Assembly (NCBI GenBank): GCA_963733035.1
Contig: CAVTBU010000006.1
Location: 96,001-160,000, forward strand
Source: Pirellulales bacterium
GTDB taxonomy: Bacteria; Planctomycetota; Planctomycetia; Pirellulales; PALSA-1355
Direction of reading: 5' to 3'
DNA length: 64,000 nucleotides
Position numbers and translations under genes: made by a program. Numbering within the stretch: position 1 is the first letter of the stretch; each line of letters starts with the position of its first letter. The notes beneath the pieces are model-generated. The model had not been told where the DNA came from and did no database searches. It saw only the letters and a list, made by a program, of their open reading frames with translations. Positions 2,235-35,295 of this stretch are shown piece after piece.

Positions 2235-2319
2235 GCGCACGATAAAAGACGACGCGTAGATGTTCCCAGCAACGCCGTTAACTGGACTTTTGATTTCGGG
2301 TCCGTGCGGCTCGCGGTTG

Positions 2320-3690
2320 CTATTGTTTCGTCGCGACGCTGGTGGGGGCGATACAGTAGATTCGAGCGCTGGTGCGAATGAGGAGTTTGTCGCCCACGAC
2401 GACTGGCGTGGCCATGCCCATATCGTCCGGTGCGAGCGGGTTCTTGTGTAGCACTTCAAATTCCTGGCCGCCTTTGATGACGAATGTGACGCCGTCTTCG
2501 TTCAGGCAGAACAGCTTGCCGCCGTATGCCAAGGGGGAACTCGTGAAGGCCCGGCCGTTGGGAATGCGTTTGCGAGGATAGACTTCTTCGCCCGTCTTGG
2601 GATCATAGGCTGTCATGAAGCCGCGATCGTAGAGGATATTCATCACGCCTTTATAAATGATGGGCGTGGGATGGTAGGGCCCCATTTTGGCCGAGGACCA
2701 AACGACGTAGTCGTTGGTCGTAGCTGGCTCGACGGGTGAAATGTCGCCGCTGGCGCCCGGACGTATCGCATACACGGGATTCTCACCCCACAGGACGTGT
2801 CCGGCGATCAGGTAGAGCAGGCCGTCGTACGCAAACGGCGTGGGAATGGCCAAGATGGATTTGCCCTTGATCTTCCAAAGCAGATTGCCGTCGAGATCGT
2901 AGGAACGCGCCCAGCCGACACCGGATGTAACGATTTCGGTGCGCAGGTCGTTTTTCCAAATGAACGGCGTCGCGTAGTTTGTCTTTTCATCTTCGCGATC
3001 GACGCGCAGCTTTTCCTCGCCGGTCTTCTTGTCGAGTGCCAGCAAATACGACTGCTGTTCGTTGTCATTGACGAGGTAGATGCGATCTTTGTGCAGTACC
3101 GGGGAGATGGACGTGCCCCAACCATATTGCGTTTCCTGGGGTGGCAATAGTTTGTTCCAAAGGGGCTTGCCGTCCATATCGTAGACAAATAGCCCGATGT
3201 TGCCGAAGTAGGCATACACGCGCTCGCCGTCGGTAGTGGGCGTTTCAGAAGCCAACGTGTTCTTGAGATGATGAGGCTTGGGCGGAATTGCCGTATGCGC
3301 GGTCTGCTCCCAAAGCTTCTTGCCGGTGTTTAAGTCCAGGCAAAGGACCTTCCACTCATGCGGATCCTTCGGCTTGGGATACTTGTTGGCATCGACGTCC
3401 TCGATGTACAGACCTTTGCGAGGTTCGGTCGTCTTGCCGGTGTTGACACAAGTCGTCAAGTAGACGCGACCATCCCACACGATCGGCGACGACCAGGCCA
3501 ACCCCGGCACGTCAGTCTTCCAGAGGACATTTTCCGTGGCCGTCCAATGGTCGGGCGGAAGCGGGCCACTTTCGTCCGGCATGCGCCCGGCCAGGAACTG
3601 AGGCACGTTGATTTCCGCCCCCAGCGCTGACTCAATGAGCAATCCGGCTCCCACTGCGGCCATAACTGCCAGCGATACGATGCGCGTCAT
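2320..3690 (-). CDS. Secreted PQQ-binding-like beta-propeller repeat protein
   Basis: Signal peptide MTRIVSLAVMAAVGAGLL; ENVLWKTDVPGLAWSSPIVW, ASETPTTDGERVYAYFG and FTSSP repeats. Confidence 0.85.
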   Translation of the reverse strand: MTRIVSLAVMAAVGAGLLIESALGAEINVPQFLAGRMPDESGPLPPDHWTATENVLWKTDVPGLAWSSPIVWDGRVYLTTCVNTGKTTEPRKGLYIEDVDANKYPKPKDPHEWKVLCLDLNTGKKLWEQTAHTAIPPKPHHLKNTLASETPTTDGERVYAYFGNIGLFVYDMDGKPLWNKLLPPQETQYGWGTSISPVLHKDRIYLVNDNEQQSYLLALDKKTGEEKLRVDREDEKTNYATPFIWKNDLRTEIVTSGVGWARSYDLDGNLLWKIKGKSILAIPTPFAYDGLLYLIAGHVLWGENPVYAIRPGASGDISPVEPATTNDYVVWSSAKMGPYHPTPIIYKGVMNILYDRGFMTAYDPKTGEEVYPRKRIPNGRAFTSSPLAYGGKLFCLNEDGVTFVIKGGQEFEVLHKNPLAPDDMGMATPVVVGDKLLIRTSARIYCIAPTSVATKQ

Positions 3691-26401: not shown

Positions 26402-29400
26402 ATGGAATATCTGTTTGGCGGTTTGTGCCTGCTCGTCGCGGTGACTGTCGTGGGGCACGGGCTGTGGGTACTGTTTTCGCTCCCCTTTCGCGACGCGAGC
26501 ACCGCGTCGCAGGGTGGCTTGTGGCCCAGCACGTTGCCGCGCCGCTGTCCACGGTGCATGCTGCCGCTGGTCGATTCCTGGTGTTACGTATGTCATTGGC
26601 CGGCTCCTGCCGGATCGGAGCCTCCCAACACATTGCAGGCCATCAATGCGCTGACGGCGCAGCTCGAACAACTCGAGCGGTTGGGCGCGCTCGATGTCGA
26701 GACGGGTCAGCAGATGGCCGCCACGTTGGCGGCCGCGCGGTCGCGGCTGCGAGAGGTGGCTGCCGGAAAAGAGACAGCCAGCGAGCCTGCGGTAATGGCC
26801 GAAGCCGCGGACGAACCCCTCGTCGCGGCCTCGGCAAGCGCGCCGCCGCCGGTGATGACAACCTTGTCGAGCAGGGCTGAATCACACGCCGAACCTTCCC
26901 CTGAACGTTCCGCGGCGCAGCGCGTCGCCGACTACGTTTCCCGATCGCAATCGCCCTCGTCGGGTTGTCGAGCCGGTCGTACCACGCCGATCGTGGACCG
27001 ACTGGCTGGCTGCCTTCATGGAAGAACGCAACATTCGCTGGGGCGAACTCGTGGGCGGGTTGTTGATTGTCGGTTGCTCAATCGCATTGGTGATCAGCTT
27101 TTGGGCCCAGATCGAATCGCGTGGGTGGCTCAAGTTTTCGCTGTTCAACGGCGTGACGGCCGCCATCTTTGGCGTGGGCTTCTACAGCGAACATCGCTGG
27201 CGTCTCAAAACCACTAGCCGGGGATTGCTGACGATCGGCTGTCTGCTGGTGCCGCTGAATTTTCTGGCCATTGCCGCGCTGTCGAGCACGCCGGGCAGCG
27301 GCGAGCTGCTGACGATTGTCGGCGAAGTGTTGTCGGCCGGGTTGTTCGCGGGGCTGGTGTACTTTGCCGGACGGGTCCTGATCGAGCGCGACGAAATAGC
27401 ACTCACCGCCGGATTGATAGTGCCGGCGCTCTCGCAATTGCTCGTAAGGCGGTTCGTCCATCCGGGCGCCGAATTACCGATGCTGGTGGCTATCGCGTGC
27501 GTGCCCACGCTCTCTTACCTGGCGGCTACCTTTTGGCACTTGCGATCGTTGAGCGCCGAGTTGATGCCGGACGAGGCGCGGGTGAACGGCCTGTTTCGGT
27601 TTCTCGGCCTGGCGACCTTCGCCGTCATCTTGCCGCTGGCATTGTTGCTGTACAAAACGGGCCAGCCGGTTCAGACGCTACGCCAGATGCCCGCCTTGGC
27701 GGCTCTGTTGGGTTTCGTGCCGCTGTGCGCGGGACTCTTGCTGTGGCAGAAGTTGGCCGGCCGCTCGCTGGTTAGTCTGAGAACGGCGGGCACCAGCGTG
27801 GCGGCCTTAGGGGCGATGGTTACGCTGTCGGGCCTCGTCATTGGCTGGCCCGAGCCAAGCGCGCTATTGCCCGTGGCATTGCTTGAATTCGCGATCTTTA
27901 CGTTTGTCGCCTGGCGATTCGCATTGCCGGCAGCGCACCTGCTGGCGGCACCGTGCCTTGGTTTGGCCTTTCTGCTTGCTGGACATCTGCTGGGCGGTCA
28001 GATCACCTGGACAGGCATGGATTCTCGCACGTTGGCCGCGGCCATCGTGAGCGGTGAGAGCGGCATGCTGCTGGCGCCGCTCGTGTTGGCGTACGCTGGC
28101 GCTACCCTTCTCGCGCTGCGATTCGAGGCTGTCGCGCGGCGCGAACTCGGCGCGGCGACCTGTGGTCTGATGGGCACAAGCGTTGCGCTTGTGAGTTGGT
28201 TCGGGTTTGGCCCGCGCGGTGTGCCGCTGGGAACCGAATGGGTCTATTTGCTGTACGCGGTCGGCTGTCTGGCCGTCAGTTCGCGAGTACGCTACGCCAC
28301 GCCGGCCTGGATCGGATCGGCGCTGTTGTTGGGCAGCGTGGTACAGGCGGTTGCGTTCCGTTTCGGACCATCGCTGGAGATTGCCCATTCGGCCGTGGGA
28401 GCGTTGCTGCTGTATGCCTCGTTCAGCGCGGCGCTGGCCCTGGCGACGGCCATTCGCGGAATGGTCGTTGCGGACAGTTCGCTGGCGGGAGTTGCCTGGC
28501 GGGCGTCGCTGGTCGTGTCGGCGCTGGCTGCGACGGCGCTGGTGTTGCTCATGCCCGAGACCACTGTCGGTTGGCAGGCGGCGTACTGGTTTTGGGTGTC
28601 GGCGTTGTGGGGAAGCGGCGCTTTGGCGCTCGGCTGGGTTCCGCTGGGCGTGATGTTTCAGGCAGCATTGGCCTTGACGGCGATGCTCGCCGCCGTGACG
28701 CCGCTGGCGGACCGTGCGTGGTTCAATCAATCGACGCGACCGTGGCTCGATCCGTGGACGCTGCAAACAGTTGGCCTGGCTTGGGTCGCGCTCAACCTCG
28801 CTTGGACAGCGCTACGAGCCGTGTGTGCGCGACGTGATCGTTTGTTCGCGCCAAATCCGTTGCTGGTGCGCGCTGGCGATTCGCTGGCTTCACCTTGGAT
28901 GGTGGTCGATCGTGTGCTTACGGTGGCGCTGGTGGCCTTGCTCGGCACGCTGGGAGCCTACGCGGCGCTGCCCGGCGTGCTGACCGAGATCATGCCCGTG
29001 AGCAATCCTTCGGCGTTTGACCTCGCTGGCTTGCAGAAGCTTGGTATCTCGCACCAGCACGCGGGCGACTGGGGCAGTTGGGCGCTGCTTGCCGGGTTAC
29101 TGTCGTTGTTGCTGGTGATGCTGCGGTCGCATGCGTCGCACGGATGGATGTACTGCGCGATTCTGGTCACTGCTTGTGGTTGCCCGTTGTTGGCCTCGTG
29201 GTTCGAGGGGCAAAGGGCCGTTGCCAGCGGTTTGGCATGGGGGTCCGGGCTGTGGCTCTTGGCCGGATCGTGGGGAGTTTGGTGCCGCACCGCTGTCGTT
29301 CGATTGGCTGGGCGACTCGGTTGGCCGACGCGGTCGGGCGACGCTCGGGCGCGTCAGGAGTCGACGCTGCTCGTCTTGGTCCTGGGACTGGCAGCGCCAC

Positions 29401-32400
29401 TGGGCCTGGCGCTCATGGTCGCATCAAACGCACTCACCCGCACGCCACACCTGGGGTTGCTCGGTCGTGAAGCGGGGATTTACTGGTTGGGTGCGATTGT
29501 GCTGGTCATGGCGGGCGGTGTCGTGTCGGCGCGCGACCAGGCGGAAGCGCGCGGCAGGGCGGGGGGGAATCGCCCCAATTGGCCCGTCGATAGCGGTGCG
29601 CTGTTGCTGCTATTGGGCGTCATGCCTGTGGTGGCGGTTATGCTCTACCACGTTGCGATGGCCCTCTCGCTAAGTCCGATTGAAGGACCCGGAACGCAGT
29701 CGATTTTCGGCCGACTGGGACTGCCGCTGGCGTATAGCGGTCCTTTACTGTTGATTTCGCTGGCACTGGTGGGCTACGGGCTACGCGAGCGATCGGGCGG
29801 TTTTGCTTTGGCGGGCGGTTTCGCGCTGGGCGGGGCGGCAACGACGGCTTATCTGGTGGCCCATGATTTCGCCCTGATGGAGGTCGGCACTTGGGTTCGC
29901 GTGGCCCAGCTCGATGCCATCGTGGCAGCAGTGTACACCGTCGGTTGGATCGCAATCCCGGCCTGGGACGCGCGGCGCGAGGGACGATATGGTTTGACGG
30001 CGAGCGGGCCGCTGTTCGGGCGCAAGCCCTTGTTGCACCGGTGCTGACGACGCTGCCGCTGGCATGGAGTTGGGCGTCTTTGGTGCGGTATCCGGCGCGC
30101 TATCCCGACGCGGTGGTGCCACCTGAAATCGCCGACGTGTGGGGAGCGATCGGTTTGCTGCTGACGGCGGTGAGCGTTTGGGCCGCGGCCGTTGCGACGG
30201 AGCGGCGGTTAAGCAAGCTAGCCACAAGCACGCTTTTGGTGGCGCTAGCGATCTTTGCCTCGGGCGTTGCCGCGCAGTGGGATGGCGGCACGTGGCTGGC
30301 CTACCACACGCTTTATATCGGCCATGCATCGATTGCCGTAGTGCTGTTAGTTGCAGCGTGGCGCGAGACACGAATGACAATCGAGTCGTCCGACACGCCG
30401 GCAATCGAAGACACGCTGGCACCGACCGGGGCAATGTGGCCGCTGCTGCAAACCGCCATCTTTCTAGGGCTCGCCGTGCGCCAGGCAAGCGACTATCTGT
30501 GGTGGGCGGTCGGTGGGTACGTTCTGAGCGGATTGGTGCTGCTGCCGGCGCTGGCCTGGCTCTACCAACGGCGGCGCTATTTGTATTTCGCCGCGCCGCT
30601 GGTGAACCTGGCGGGCATCGCCACCGTGGCCGAGTGGAACTGGATTGCGGATTTGCCGGAGCTGCTGTACTGGAACATCGTGCTGTTGGCCGTGCCGGCG
30701 CCGGGCTGGCTGTTGGTCGAACAGATGTCGATCCGGTGGCGAACGTTCAAGCCGTGGTACAGTCTGACGCCCATGCATCGTACGGCCACGCGGCTGGCGG
30801 TCGTCATCCTCACGCTTGTGGTTGGTTTCGGATTGCTCGGTGACGCCACGGGCGCCGGCAAGCCTTTGCCGCTGTTTGCGTTAAACTGGATCGCACTGGG
30901 AGCGACATTCGTGGCGGCCTTGGCTTGTCTTTACGACGCTGATGCTCGCGACGCGGTGGCCGTGTTGTATGTGCTGGGGCTCGTGGCTTGCGGCGTGCTG
31001 CTCGATGGCTTCAATCTCTCGCCGCCTTGGTTGCTGTGGACCGGGACGATGGTGCTGGCCGCCTACGCGCTGGCGACGAGTTATCTGTGGAGTCGACGCC
31101 AGGAGCTGCAAGACATTTCCCAGGCCCTCGGTATTCCCCGAGGCAACCGCGGCGAGATGGCCGGTCTGGGGTGGCTGGTGCCGTGTAACACGCTGTTGAT
31201 TGTGGCCGTCGTGGCGATGACGTTCGTCGTCGAGTTGACGAATCTGCGGACGGATCTGCGCGTGCTGGCTTCGCAAGCGACGCTCGTGCAGGTGCTCAGC
31301 TTGGGATTGCTCGCGCGGGGCGAGCGTCGCGGTGTGTTGCAGTTCGCGGCACTCTCGCTGGGGGCAGTCGGAGCCGTGTTCTTTGGTTGGGGATGGCTCG
31401 ACCCGCGGTCGTCGTTCACGCTCTTGCATGCGCTAGTTGTCGTGGCGGCTGCGACCGCCGGCATGGCGGCGTTCTACGGGCTGGGACTGTCGAAGCTGCT
31501 ATCCGAGATGAATGAATGGCTTCTAGCGGCGCAGAAGCTGATGCCCCCGCTGGCCGCAGTGAGCGGCGGGACGGTGGTGGCTACACTGGGCCTCGAAGTC
31601 TATCAGTTCGCCACGTATGGCGCGGTGGCAATGGCCTGGCCGGCGGTGATCGTGGTGGGAGTCACGCTGGCAGGACTTGCCTTGGCGTTGTTGGCCGCGG
31701 CGGTCCTGCCGGGACGCGATCCGCTACAACTCTCGGAGAAAGCCCGCTCGGCGTACGTTTATGCCGCGGAAGTCATTTTGGCCCTGTTGTTCGTGCATAT
31801 CCGCGTGACGTGTCCCTGGCTTTTCTCCGGATTCTTCCAGCAGTTCTGGCCGCTGATCGTGATGGCGATTGCCTATCTTGGCGTGGGAGCCGGCGAGCTG
31901 CTTCGTCGCCGCGAGCAGCACGTGTTGTCCGGGCCGCTGGAGAATACCGGTGCCATGCTGCCTGTGCTTCCGGTGATCGGGTTTTGGGTGGCCGACTCGC
32001 GCGTGGATTATTCGCTGTTGCTGTTCGGCGTGGGCGTGCTGTATGCGGGCCTGTCGATTGCGCGGCGATCGTTCGGCTTTGGTGTTTTGGCGGCCGTGGC
32101 GGCCAACGGCGGCTTGTGGTACCTGCTCAATCGGCAGGACGGCTGGGGTTTTCTGGCGCACCCGCAGGTGTGGCTAATTCCACCCGCCTTGTGCGTGTTG
32201 GCGGCGGCCTATCTCAACCGGCGGCAACTGACAGACGGGCAGATGACGGCCATCCGCTATTTTACTTCGATGGCGATTTACCTTTCGTCGACGGCCGACA
32301 TCTTCTTGAACGGCGTCGCTCAGAATCCTTGGTTGCCGATGGTACTCGCGGTCCTGTCGATCGCGGGCATCCTGTCGGGCATCTTGTTGCGAGTCCGTGC

Positions 32401-32605
32401 GTTTCTGTTCTTGGGCACGGGTTTCCTGGCGCTGGCGATCTTTACCATCATCTGGTACGCGGCGGTTGACTTGGATCAGACCTGGATCTGGTATGCAAGC
32501 GGCATCATTCTGGGCATCCTACTGCTGGTGCTGTTTGCCGTCTTTGAAAAGAAACAACAGGACTTGCTCGAAGTGGTCGAGCGACTGAAGCAGTGGGAAG
32601 GTTAG
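26402..32605 (+). CDS. Giant polytopic membrane protein (~2060 aa) with N-terminal Zn-ribbon-like motif; split by frameshifts near 26970 and 30020
   Basis: Three overlapping same-strand ORFs (26288..27217, 27018..30047, 29891..32605) that are continuously hydrophobic; CPRC...CYVC near the N-terminus; MEERNIRWGELVGGLLIVGCSIAL block. Confidence 0.75.
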
Positions 32606-34032: not shown

Positions 34033-35061
34033 TCAATCCTCGTCAAAGAGCGACGCATCGTCGACGAGCGTTTGTAACTCTTGCCGCGCGGCGCGAGGGT
34101 CGCTGACCACGGCTAACATTAGCTGCTCGAGTGGTTCGGGTTCGAGCCGGGCGATGTGCATCAGCACTTCCGGCAGCGGGTGACCTGCGGGCAGAACCGC
34201 CAACAGCCGTCGCCACGCCTCGGGCCCGGCTTGCAACAGCCAGGTTTCGTATTCGAGCTGATCGGCTTCGTCCGTAGCTTGTTCGTAGGTTTCGTCGTCG
34301 AGTGCGTTCAGGCCGTGCAGGCAGATGAGCTCGGCCGTACCTTTTGAAAGCTCATGCAGCAACAACGGCCAACAAATGGCTTTGCCAACGACGTGAAAAC
34401 GGTCGCCGTCGCGCCGGACGCCTCCATAGCCGACCACCGCGGCCCGCGTGACGCGGCCCACCGCGGTGCGCGGCGTGCGCAAGTGTCCGAAGGCCACGGC
34501 GTGGGTGATTTCCGCCACCAGGCGATCTTCGTCGATACCCCAGATCATCGCGGCCGCGCGCTTGGCGACTTCGGCAAGCTCACGCTCATGACCTCGCTCC
34601 AGTCGCAGCATCTTGAGGTGCAGCCAAATCATCTGCACGTAGTGGAGCGGTGGAATCCCAATGATGCCCTTCTTCCAACCTCGCTGGCGAAGGTAGTGTT
34701 TTGAGGCCCTCGCCAGTTGACCTCCGTAGCAAGCGAGTAACGGATGACGATGGAACGGGTGCCGTGGACGTCGCGTGCGATGCCAGAACCAAAACGGCCA
34801 ACCGTAGAGCAGCGGAATGTCGCCGATGAAGTAATTGAGGTGAAAGGCGACAATTGTCTTGTCATACAGCTTTGTCAGACCGGGCTGGATCGCCTCGAGT
34901 TCGTCGGCCACCAAATGATGCGCGGTGAGAAACGTGTGAGCGGCCGCGCCTTGAATTAACAAATTGAGTGTGAGCCGCTTGTTGATCTGCTGCAAAAGTT
35001 CGTCGGAATAGGCGGCACGGCTTTCCGTTCTCCTCCCATCGCTGGAATCCGAATGTCGCAC
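34033..35061 (-). CDS. Uncharacterised 342-aa protein with an HExxKGxxE motif
   Basis: Long ORF with protein-like composition; INKRLTLNLLIQGAA, WPLLLHELSKGTAELICLHGL and EYETWLLQAGPEAW blocks. GTG start 9 nt after the upstream stop. Confidence 0.75.
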   Translation of the reverse strand: MRHSDSSDGRRTESRAAYSDELLQQINKRLTLNLLIQGAAAHTFLTAHHLVADELEAIQPGLTKLYDKTIVAFHLNYFIGDIPLLYGWPFWFWHRTRRPRHPFHRHPLLACYGGQLARASKHYLRQRGWKKGIIGIPPLHYVQMIWLHLKMLRLERGHERELAEVAKRAAAMIWGIDEDRLVAEITHAVAFGHLRTPRTAVGRVTRAAVVGYGGVRRDGDRFHVVGKAICWPLLLHELSKGTAELICLHGLNALDDETYEQATDEADQLEYETWLLQAGPEAWRRLLAVLPAGHPLPEVLMHIARLEPEPLEQLMLAVVSDPRAARQELQTLVDDASLFDED

Positions 35062-35070
35062 GGCGGTTTG

Positions 35071-35295
35071 CTAAGCCTTGGGTTGCGGCTCGGGGCGGCC
35101 CGTGGGCCACGTCGGATTGAAGGGATCCAGATCCGGTTTTTCCTTTGGCGGCGGATCGGGGGTTGCCGGTTCGGTGTCGGGCTCGACCTTGGGCGTTTCC
35201 GGCGGCGCCGACGGCGCGCTGCTCCCCAATCGGAAAAACGAAACCTGATTCCAAAAGGGAATCGGGGGGCGTGCTCGGTGCTGTATCATTTCCAT
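35071..35295 (-). CDS. Small Pro-rich, probably disordered peptide ending DPFNPTWPTGRPEPQPKA
   Basis: 74-aa ORF tightly coupled to the downstream gene; P/E/T/K/D-rich C-terminal two thirds. Confidence 0.65.
   Translation of the reverse strand: MEMIQHRARPPIPFWNQVSFFRLGSSAPSAPPETPKVEPDTEPATPDPPPKEKPDLDPFNPTWPTGRPEPQPKA

Follow-up and report, generated by a model that had tools for sequence, protein, structure and literature searches.

Two adjacent open reading frames (ORFs) in a 64,000-nucleotide stretch of a Pirellulales genome (contig CAVTBU010000006.1, positions 96,001 to 160,000; hereafter the window) encode a peptide of 74 residues and a soluble protein of 342 residues (Table 1). A preliminary description, made from the DNA letters alone, had singled them out as a peptide with a dedicated partner. 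Both ORFs lie on the minus strand at the coordinates given there, the 9-nt gap is as described, and the strings it quoted translate as given, among them INKRLTLNLLIQGA and HELSKGTAE in the large ORF. The pairing itself also proved to be real and conserved, and neither partner carries an annotation.

By tblastn, a homologue of the small ORF lies directly 5' of the large gene in eight of nine species loci (the window's own, L002, L003 and L006-L010), as expected if a motif-bearing ORF regularly precedes the large gene; the ninth locus, L004, has no upstream homologue by the same search. A profile of the eight peptides retrieved 76 small proteins annotated as genes by other pipelines, 75 of them with the motif, and the small relative CA13_25180 adjoins the large-protein homologue CA13_25170. 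All 75 keep the P, F, P, W, P, P, P and K of the tail, and 74 keep the final Ala. On these comparisons the small ORF is a conserved partner of the large gene, beyond chance. The tail DPFNPTWPTGRPEPQPKA had been taken to have a fixed PxPKA ending: PKA is the exact C terminus in 49 of the 75 motif-bearing relatives, whereas unconserved tails of 1-57 residues follow it in the other 26. Likewise, the tail and the Pro-rich arm of the architecture first described are conserved, but the hydrophobic N-terminal stretch PIPFWNQVSFFRLG is not, because many relatives are proteins of 48-60 residues that start MPETxPEAPP (the minimal peptide, of 48-50 residues, begins MPETxPEAPPAEPE...). Within the 18-codon tail, pairwise codon differences are synonymous in 192 cases and nonsynonymous in 135, and the columns with an invariant Pro or Ala draw on as many as all four codons for that residue; judged by these patterns, the last 18 codons are under constraint at the protein level. 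A six-frame scan of the window's genome returned a single strict motif match, the small ORF itself, and no other copy. Pfam, NCBIfam, PHROGs and PADLOC gave no match for the 74-aa protein.

Table 1. The gene pair, its parts and two further ORFs of the window (positions count from the first nucleotide of the window).
Feature	Position	Strand	Description
Small ORF, 74 aa	35071..35295	minus	ATG start, TAG stop; C-terminal end DPFNPTWPTGRPEPQPKA
Disordered arm, residues 28-56	35128..35214	minus	Pro/Glu/Ala/Thr-rich; composition kept (P 0.34, E 0.15, A 0.12)
Docking motif DPFNPTWPTGRPEPQPKA, residues 57-74	35074..35127	minus	Conserved in 75 relatives; predicted interface
Spacer, 9 nt	35062..35070	minus	From small-ORF TAG stop to large-ORF GTG start
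Large ORF, 342 aa	34033..35061	minus	GTG start; soluble alpha+beta protein, unannotated family
Segment B, residues 10-82	34816..35034	minus	Helix INKRLTLNLLIQGAA; K28, R29, N33, G38 nearly invariant
Segment A, residues 92-203	34453..34788	minus	FW, HPF, E155, backing helix, first strand
Segment C, residues 213-333	34063..34425	minus	Beta hairpin, [Q/H]ExxKG helix, D267/E272 helix, C-terminal helical bundle
HELSKGTAE, residues 236-244	34330..34356	minus	Sits where zincins have the HExxH helix
D267...E272, second helix after sheet	34246..34263	minus	Position of gluzincin third-ligand Glu; both in predicted peptide interface
904-aa ORF	29891..32605	plus	Many hydrophobic stretches; no Pfam match
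1009-aa ORF	27018..30047	plus	No Pfam match

The large-protein family and its phage-type relatives

An exhaustive HMMER search of 1.84 billion representatives found relatives of the large protein in 601 representative clusters (50% identity) at E ≤ 0.001 and in 102 at E ≤ 1e-30. A word-indexed collection gave 569 matches, called 'hypothetical' wherever named; the named ones come from Planctomycetota, for example Lignipirellula cremea and strain CA13. Closer to the window, a homologue of the large gene is present in 4 of 41 close relatives, the own genome counted, and in 9 of the 401 genomes of the order (6 of 187 genera), and in an even draw of 401 genomes from the phylum, with five candidates scored per genome, the own genome alone was positive. 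The protein does not map cleanly to a characterised family: Pfam, NCBIfam, PHROGs and PADLOC gave no match for the 342-aa sequence, the Pfam matches of 20 long relatives stayed below threshold throughout, and no Pfam family was matched by more than one of the 45 family members scanned. Against the sequences of the PDB, the single 342-aa protein found nothing at E ≤ 10 and the profile returned noise (E 0.31-1.1). The literature that our search returned, in the parts available, contains no description of the motif or the family. By these searches, the family and the pair are conserved, undescribed and unannotated.

Relatives beyond the Planctomycetota lie on phage-like and metagenomic contigs; one neighbours a split DnaE-type polymerase on a viral contig of 88 kb. 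Among cultured phages, tblastn gave no match for the window protein, and of the relative P0042 only an unrelated N-terminal part matched, in jumbo Pseudomonas phages. Scans of viral contigs with P0052 and P0066 found no match, the pattern QELSKGVME occurred there in only one contig, which was known already, and none of 80 loci retrieved by a pattern scan of genome contigs encodes a family member. In the Planctomycetota, the pair is a sporadic two-gene cassette of probable phage ancestry.

In many of the phage-type relatives, the motif and the domain belong to one chain, in which a Pro/Ala/Glu/Lys-rich arm leads to [DSN]PFxPPxPxxxPKPK[A/N], about 10 further residues and then the domain. Together with the metagenome loci described below, this bears out the preliminary description, which had placed similar proteins beside PxPKA sequences in uncultured phages. 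The strict motif pattern is found in-chain in 16 of 150 representatives. A looser pattern is found in 36 of 80 full-length representatives with the segment order A-B-C (see below), namely in 26 of the 45 with an extension of at least 40 residues and in 10 of the 35 without, against 0.3 of 45 on average, and 3 at most, when the extensions were shuffled 200 times. The motif sites are placed N-terminally in 37 cases, C-terminally in 5 and internally in 2, and a chain may carry up to three copies, as does P0060, at a spacing of roughly 50 residues. A degenerate pattern retrieved 80 metagenome loci, 9 of which encode a family member and 7 of which are evaluable. The motif is in-chain and N-terminal in three of these seven, in-chain and C-terminal in one, at the extreme end of an upstream protein of about 460 residues, in another frame, in two (L018 and L031), and present as a divergent variant in an upstream ORF in one (L061). 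The upstream protein of L018 and L031, which ends ...DPFKPEKPAVEPKPKA-LMED and is without a PHROG match, contains a recurring unit, '...GRWPEAE...'; the tag may recruit it as cargo. Because tag and domain co-travel in four layouts, the comparison provides classic fusion evidence for a direct functional link between them.

These layouts also bear on a regulatory role of the small ORF, whose Pro/Trp-rich end might stall the ribosome and thereby control translation of the large gene. Such a leader would account for a conserved Pro-rich stretch of 18 residues, with an invariant Trp, that ends an ORF 9 nt before the next start. However, the motif is found within the mature chain of the fused relatives, including the five C-terminal sites that follow the domain, and at the end of the upstream protein of about 460 residues; the Pro-rich arm before the motif is conserved as well, and the tail is predicted to bind the domain. 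We therefore hold a leader function to be very improbable.

Conceivably, the split form arose from the fused one. The small and large ORFs share a frame in three of the eight motif-bearing loci (the window, L008 and L009), which is about the proportion expected by chance, and are parted there by one or two stops (TAG in the window); L061 has the same in-frame layout with TGA as the stop. A fused gene could plausibly have been divided by a nonsense mutation directly behind PKA. Read-through of the window's in-frame TAG was considered as well and rejected, because the frames of the two ORFs differ in five of the eight loci. One in-frame TGA also interrupts the family gene of L084, a locus on a 236-kb metagenome contig (minus strand, oriented 2301-3540), where it lies in the variable A-B linker (GPGGG*VQGA). 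With this TGA read through, the longest open frame of the locus grows from 306 codons to 413; either a large phage that recodes the stop or a gene that has been split could be the cause. On the phage-like contigs L011 and L062 (GC about 0.31-0.36), a squalene-cyclase-like repeat protein is encoded on the opposite strand beside the family members, and further neighbours are a GGDEF-domain protein, a kinase-like protein and a split DnaE-type DNA polymerase III alpha.

In the window, a gene for a fatty-acid desaturase lies downstream of the pair and a divergent DinB_2 gene upstream, followed further out by a cation-efflux gene and an ABC importer, all unrelated to the pair. A third partner gene was rejected, as no gene recurs and the neighbours differ at every locus compared. 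A genomic island was likewise rejected (GC 0.58-0.64 at the pair, 0.59-0.66 in the surroundings), no mobile-element genes were seen near the pair, and a simple scan found no promoter-like site at it. The C-terminal part of the 904-aa protein (Table 1) is syntenic beside the pair in L002 and L003. One planctomycete locus, L006 (2749-3931, plus strand), has two divergent genes on the flanks of the pair, for a 'putative ATP-dependent zinc protease' (PF05618) and for a RimK ATP-grasp ligase, a single and non-recurrent case.

Fold of the large protein and its predicted complex with the tail

The large protein can be divided into three segments, which follow each other as B-A-C in the window protein and as A-B-C in the phage-type relatives P0052, P0070, P0042 and P0056 (blastp), a segment swap and not a circular permutation; the KR..N..QG helix is N-terminal in 33 of 33 representatives classed as B-A-C. 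A DNA-polymerase-A-like reading of KRxxxNxxxQGxAA was rejected on account of its spacing and a fold mismatch. Residue conservation was counted over 150 family representatives, fewer of which are aligned at single positions. The HExxKG motif of the preliminary description is conserved in its Glu (E237, 139/139), Lys (K240, 138/138) and Gly (G241, 135/138), but its His is not family-wide, since position 236 is Q in 78, H in 50 and K in 8 of 139. Similarly high counts are reached by E272 (136/138), D267 (132/138), E244 (125/138), R29 (131/133), N33 (131/134) and E155 (133/136).

AlphaFold (AF2) models of the window protein (pLDDT 94.0, pTM 0.92) and of the A-B-C relative P0052 (pLDDT 92.8, pTM 0.92) found no match in the PDB at E ≤ 0.001 with Foldseek, and one Foldseek match in BFVD, an uncharacterised protein of an uncultured Caudovirales. 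A search independent of Foldseek did return matches, weak but recurring on one theme, that of small gluzincins and their kin: YbeY (1oz9, 1xm5), selecase (4qhf), M32 carboxypeptidases (3hq2, 5giv, 1k9x), DUF885 (3iuk) and MATCAP (7z5g). Also among the weak matches were glycosidase N-domains, which we take to be zincin-like (SCOP fold d.92). The ESM Atlas model of the homologue P0228 was poor (pLDDT 0.38), and its neighbours were disregarded. The elements of our models follow each other as backing helix 159-174, strands 181-185, 211-218 and 221-228, helix 231-250, and helices 256-266 and 269-288, an order that agrees with the zincin core as defined in the sections compared of Iyer et al. (2017, PMC5512222). 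Where zincins have HExxH, the helix that directly follows the sheet bears [Q/H]-E-L-x-K-G, and D267 and E272 lie on the next long helix. From its position on the helix, E237 would be the counterpart of the zincin catalytic Glu, and the candidates for a third-ligand Glu are E272, which lies 32 residues past K240 on the second helix, and D267. Two His residues as in HExxH are absent as a family feature, the first position being variable, as given above, and the second Lys without exception. In the zincin sections of the same paper, only HExxH and HExxxH forms are described; a matching uncharacterised domain may be listed in its supplement. Thus the early suggestion of a variant zincin fits in its element order and in its weak recurrent neighbours, whereas a classical HExxH-type metal site is not found, because the His is not conserved. 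Taken as a whole, the models suggest a zincin ancestry of the domain.

Does the tail bind this domain? We predicted the complex from the family alignment of the domain and residues 28-74 of the peptide alignment. The score was 0.88 (0.89, 0.88 and 0.88 in the individual runs), and the best of three controls reached 0.00; in the calibration of the tool, which is only roughly valid for custom alignments, a score of 0.88 is reached by 116 of 157 solved complexes and by 2 of 215 mismatched pairs. The runs share at least 94% of contacts, with a partner pLDDT of at least 61. On the peptide, the predicted contacts fall on residues 56, 58-64 and 67-74, that is on the conserved motif, and the arm (residues 28-56) makes no confident predicted contact with the domain save through L56. 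On the domain, they involve N33, I36, Q37, strand 211-217, K240-T242, E244-I246, L248, H249, D267, E272 and 295-301. As an independent check, mean net charges were summed over the 46 interface positions, giving -1.5 for planctomycete-type proteins, whose peptide is near-neutral, as against -5.1 for phage-type ones, whose peptide is rich in Lys/Arg; this shift agrees with the predicted binding and, the relatives being non-independent, is supportive only. Modelling thus supports docking of the tail in a conserved groove of the domain.

Docking, cleavage or inhibition

How might tail and domain work together? We envision that the pair is a split version of a two-module protein that is common on uncultured phage-like contigs, that the tail would be a cognate tag docking in a zincin-like groove, and that binding would be the conserved function; we would give this explanation an even chance. 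Module 1 would be a flexible Pro/Glu/Ala-rich arm with a terminal linear motif of 15-18 residues (PFxPxWPxxRPxPxPKA in the window type, PFxPPxPxxxPKPK[A/N] in the phage-type relatives). Module 2 would be an alpha+beta domain with the core order of zincin-like peptidases (backing helix, three-stranded sheet, two helices), in which [Q/H]ExxK would stand in for the HExxH zinc ligands, while the 'catalytic' Glu is invariant and so is the Glu on the next helix. The motif would dock against strand 211-217 and along the ExxK helix, bringing its invariant Lys-Ala end beside K240/G241, E244, D267, E272, N33 and Q37. In the window, this would yield a heterodimer of the 74-aa and 342-aa proteins; the fused relatives would form an intramolecular or head-to-tail contact, and a larger upstream protein that ends in the motif would be recruited by the domain. 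The cleft is probably non-canonical and non-proteolytic, because the family as a whole has lost both His ligands and the majority of split peptides, stopping at PKA as they do, need no cut, and we infer that its conserved function is binding, be it docking or plugging of the cleft, and not canonical Zn-dependent proteolysis. Since the acidic cluster of E244, D267 and E272 lies by the peptide's invariant Lys in the model, binding alone would explain much of the conservation.

Several observations weigh against such a purely binding role. Only 7 of the 29 most conserved positions are within the predicted interface, and the conserved polar residues K28, R29, H48, H106, E155 and E237 lie outside its confident part, so that docking alone leaves the absolute invariance of E237 and K240 unexplained. 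Moreover, conservation ends sharply at A/N, the next residue being variable, and some chains contain several motif copies.

Alternatively, the domain may be a peptidase of zincin descent but atypical (poor in metal, based on Glu/Lys, or having a metal site of non-canonical type) that cuts directly after ...PK[A/N]. Self-processing of the fused phage proteins would then free the Pro-rich arm(s) or neighbouring domains, and in the split forms the variable tails after PKA would be trimmed, with the product staying bound. Invariance of E237 and K240, with R29, N33, E155, D267 and E272 nearly so, is an enzyme-like pattern, and the sharp stop of conservation before a variable residue, the trimmable tails of 26 of the 75 split peptides and the motifs of P0060, up to three of them about 50 residues apart as in a multi-unit precursor, argue in the same direction. 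In the complex model, the last residues of the peptide lie by K240/G241, one helical turn off E237. Autoproteolytic processing by zincin-like domains has also been proposed for phage polyvalent proteins, in the sections compared of Iyer et al. (2017, PMC5512222). Against cleavage stand the loss of both zinc-binding His positions throughout the family and the 49 of 75 split peptides that end at PKA already and leave nothing to cut there. To our knowledge, there is also no precedent for a Glu/Lys zincin. On balance, we see in the peptidase a possible but doubtful explanation. A more far-reaching idea, which we think unlikely, is a new tag-and-catcher chemistry, phage-borne and domesticated as the two-gene cassette of the Planctomycetota, in which a zincin scaffold would carry an invariant Glu...Lys pair in place of the zinc site. 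It might be a metal-independent self-processing peptidase that frees Pro-rich peptides of about 45-50 residues ending ...PxPK[A/N], or a catcher that covalently locks the tag through the invariant Lys. With a P-x-P-basic-aliphatic end and multi-copy precursors like P0060, such products would resemble the apidaecin-type proline-rich peptides, whose target is the ribosome.

It is also conceivable that the domain has other targets, in the cell or in a host, and that the tail, as a pseudo-substrate plug, holds it inactive until the peptide is degraded or displaced, as in a toxin-antitoxin-like or zymogen-like arrangement of inhibitor and effector. A small disordered protein 9 nt upstream of a larger one, a patchy distribution (9 of 401 genomes of the order), the tie of the family to phage-like contigs and the predicted filling of a conserved groove by the peptide would all suit this explanation, and as the window's genome holds no second motif copy, the cleft would have no other target with a like motif there. 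On the other side, no PADLOC defence model matches either window protein, Pfam finds in the small protein no DNA-binding domain as is usual in type II antitoxins, and neither a compositional island nor mobile-element genes are found nearby; we rate an inhibitor-effector pair as quite improbable.

Docking of a cognate tag would have several implications. A large protein family without a library name gains a testable handle, a proline-rich tag of 15-18 residues that is either fused or encoded by the neighbouring gene, and the tag-domain pair could account for latching, assembly or processing of some large phage proteins. If the zincin ancestry holds true, the family shows what becomes of a protease cleft in which both His residues are replaced and the catalytic Glu is kept: perhaps a receptor for peptides, a latch of pseudo-substrate type or a hydrolase without precedent. 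Since the peptide is short and has a receptor of its own, the pair is, in addition, a potential orthogonal docking tool.

Relation to known systems

The preliminary description had likened the pair to tag-conjugation systems such as Pup-PafA and UBact, with which it has in common a small disordered protein with a fixed C-terminal end and an adjacent gene for a dedicated partner, and to pairs of precursor and maturase of ribosomally synthesized and post-translationally modified peptides (RiPPs). The partner of Pup or UBact is an ATP-dependent ligase of the glutamine-synthetase-like PafA/Dop type, and the tag acts via its free C-terminal residue; RiPP systems have a known modifying enzyme or an RRE domain, together with genes for tailoring or export that recur beside them. 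The end at PKA in 49 of 75 relatives would be in keeping with a free C terminus, yet 36 of the 80 phage-type proteins bear the motif in-chain. In many relatives the motif precedes the domain within the same chain, as neither a C-terminal conjugation tag nor a RiPP core would. Neither Pfam nor NCBIfam finds a ligase, ATP-grasp, YcaO, radical-SAM or RRE family in the large protein, whose predicted fold is helical with a small sheet; no third gene recurs, neighbours of Dop or proteasome type are lacking, and no other protein of the genome bears the motif. Both likenesses are thus not supported, and we consider conjugation or RiPP maturation most improbable.

Type II toxin-antitoxin pairs likewise combine a small, partly disordered upstream protein with tight spacing and a patchy distribution, and groove binding, predicted here, is a further common trait. 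Their antitoxin has a DNA-binding domain and their toxin is of a known family, whereas the pair has no DNA-binding domain, no known toxin fold and no PADLOC match, and its relatives include single-chain fusions with 1-3 peptide copies. Comparable too are the pro-peptide or pseudo-substrate plugs of protease zymogens, such as the PRCGxPD 'cysteine switch' of matrix metalloproteinases, in which a short conserved Pro-containing motif on an N-terminal flexible arm occupies the active-site cleft, as is predicted of the tail here. Unlike these, the putative plug of our family can be a separate gene product, C-terminal or multi-copy, and its cleft would lack the zinc site.

A final comparison is with the zincin-like metallopeptidase (MPTase) domains that polyvalent proteins of phages and plasmids contain (Iyer et al., 2017, PMC5512222). 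The family differs from them in having [Q/H]ExxK, with an invariant K, for HExxH, in the absence of a Pfam or PHROG match for any member tested, and in its obligate companion, the linear motif, which the sections compared do not describe for those domains. Like them, it is phage-borne and often part of large multidomain proteins (family members of 400-1484 aa), and its models have a comparable core, with a backing helix, then a sheet of three strands and two further helices that each bear a Glu; for the MPTase domains, the sections compared propose an action on their own chain.
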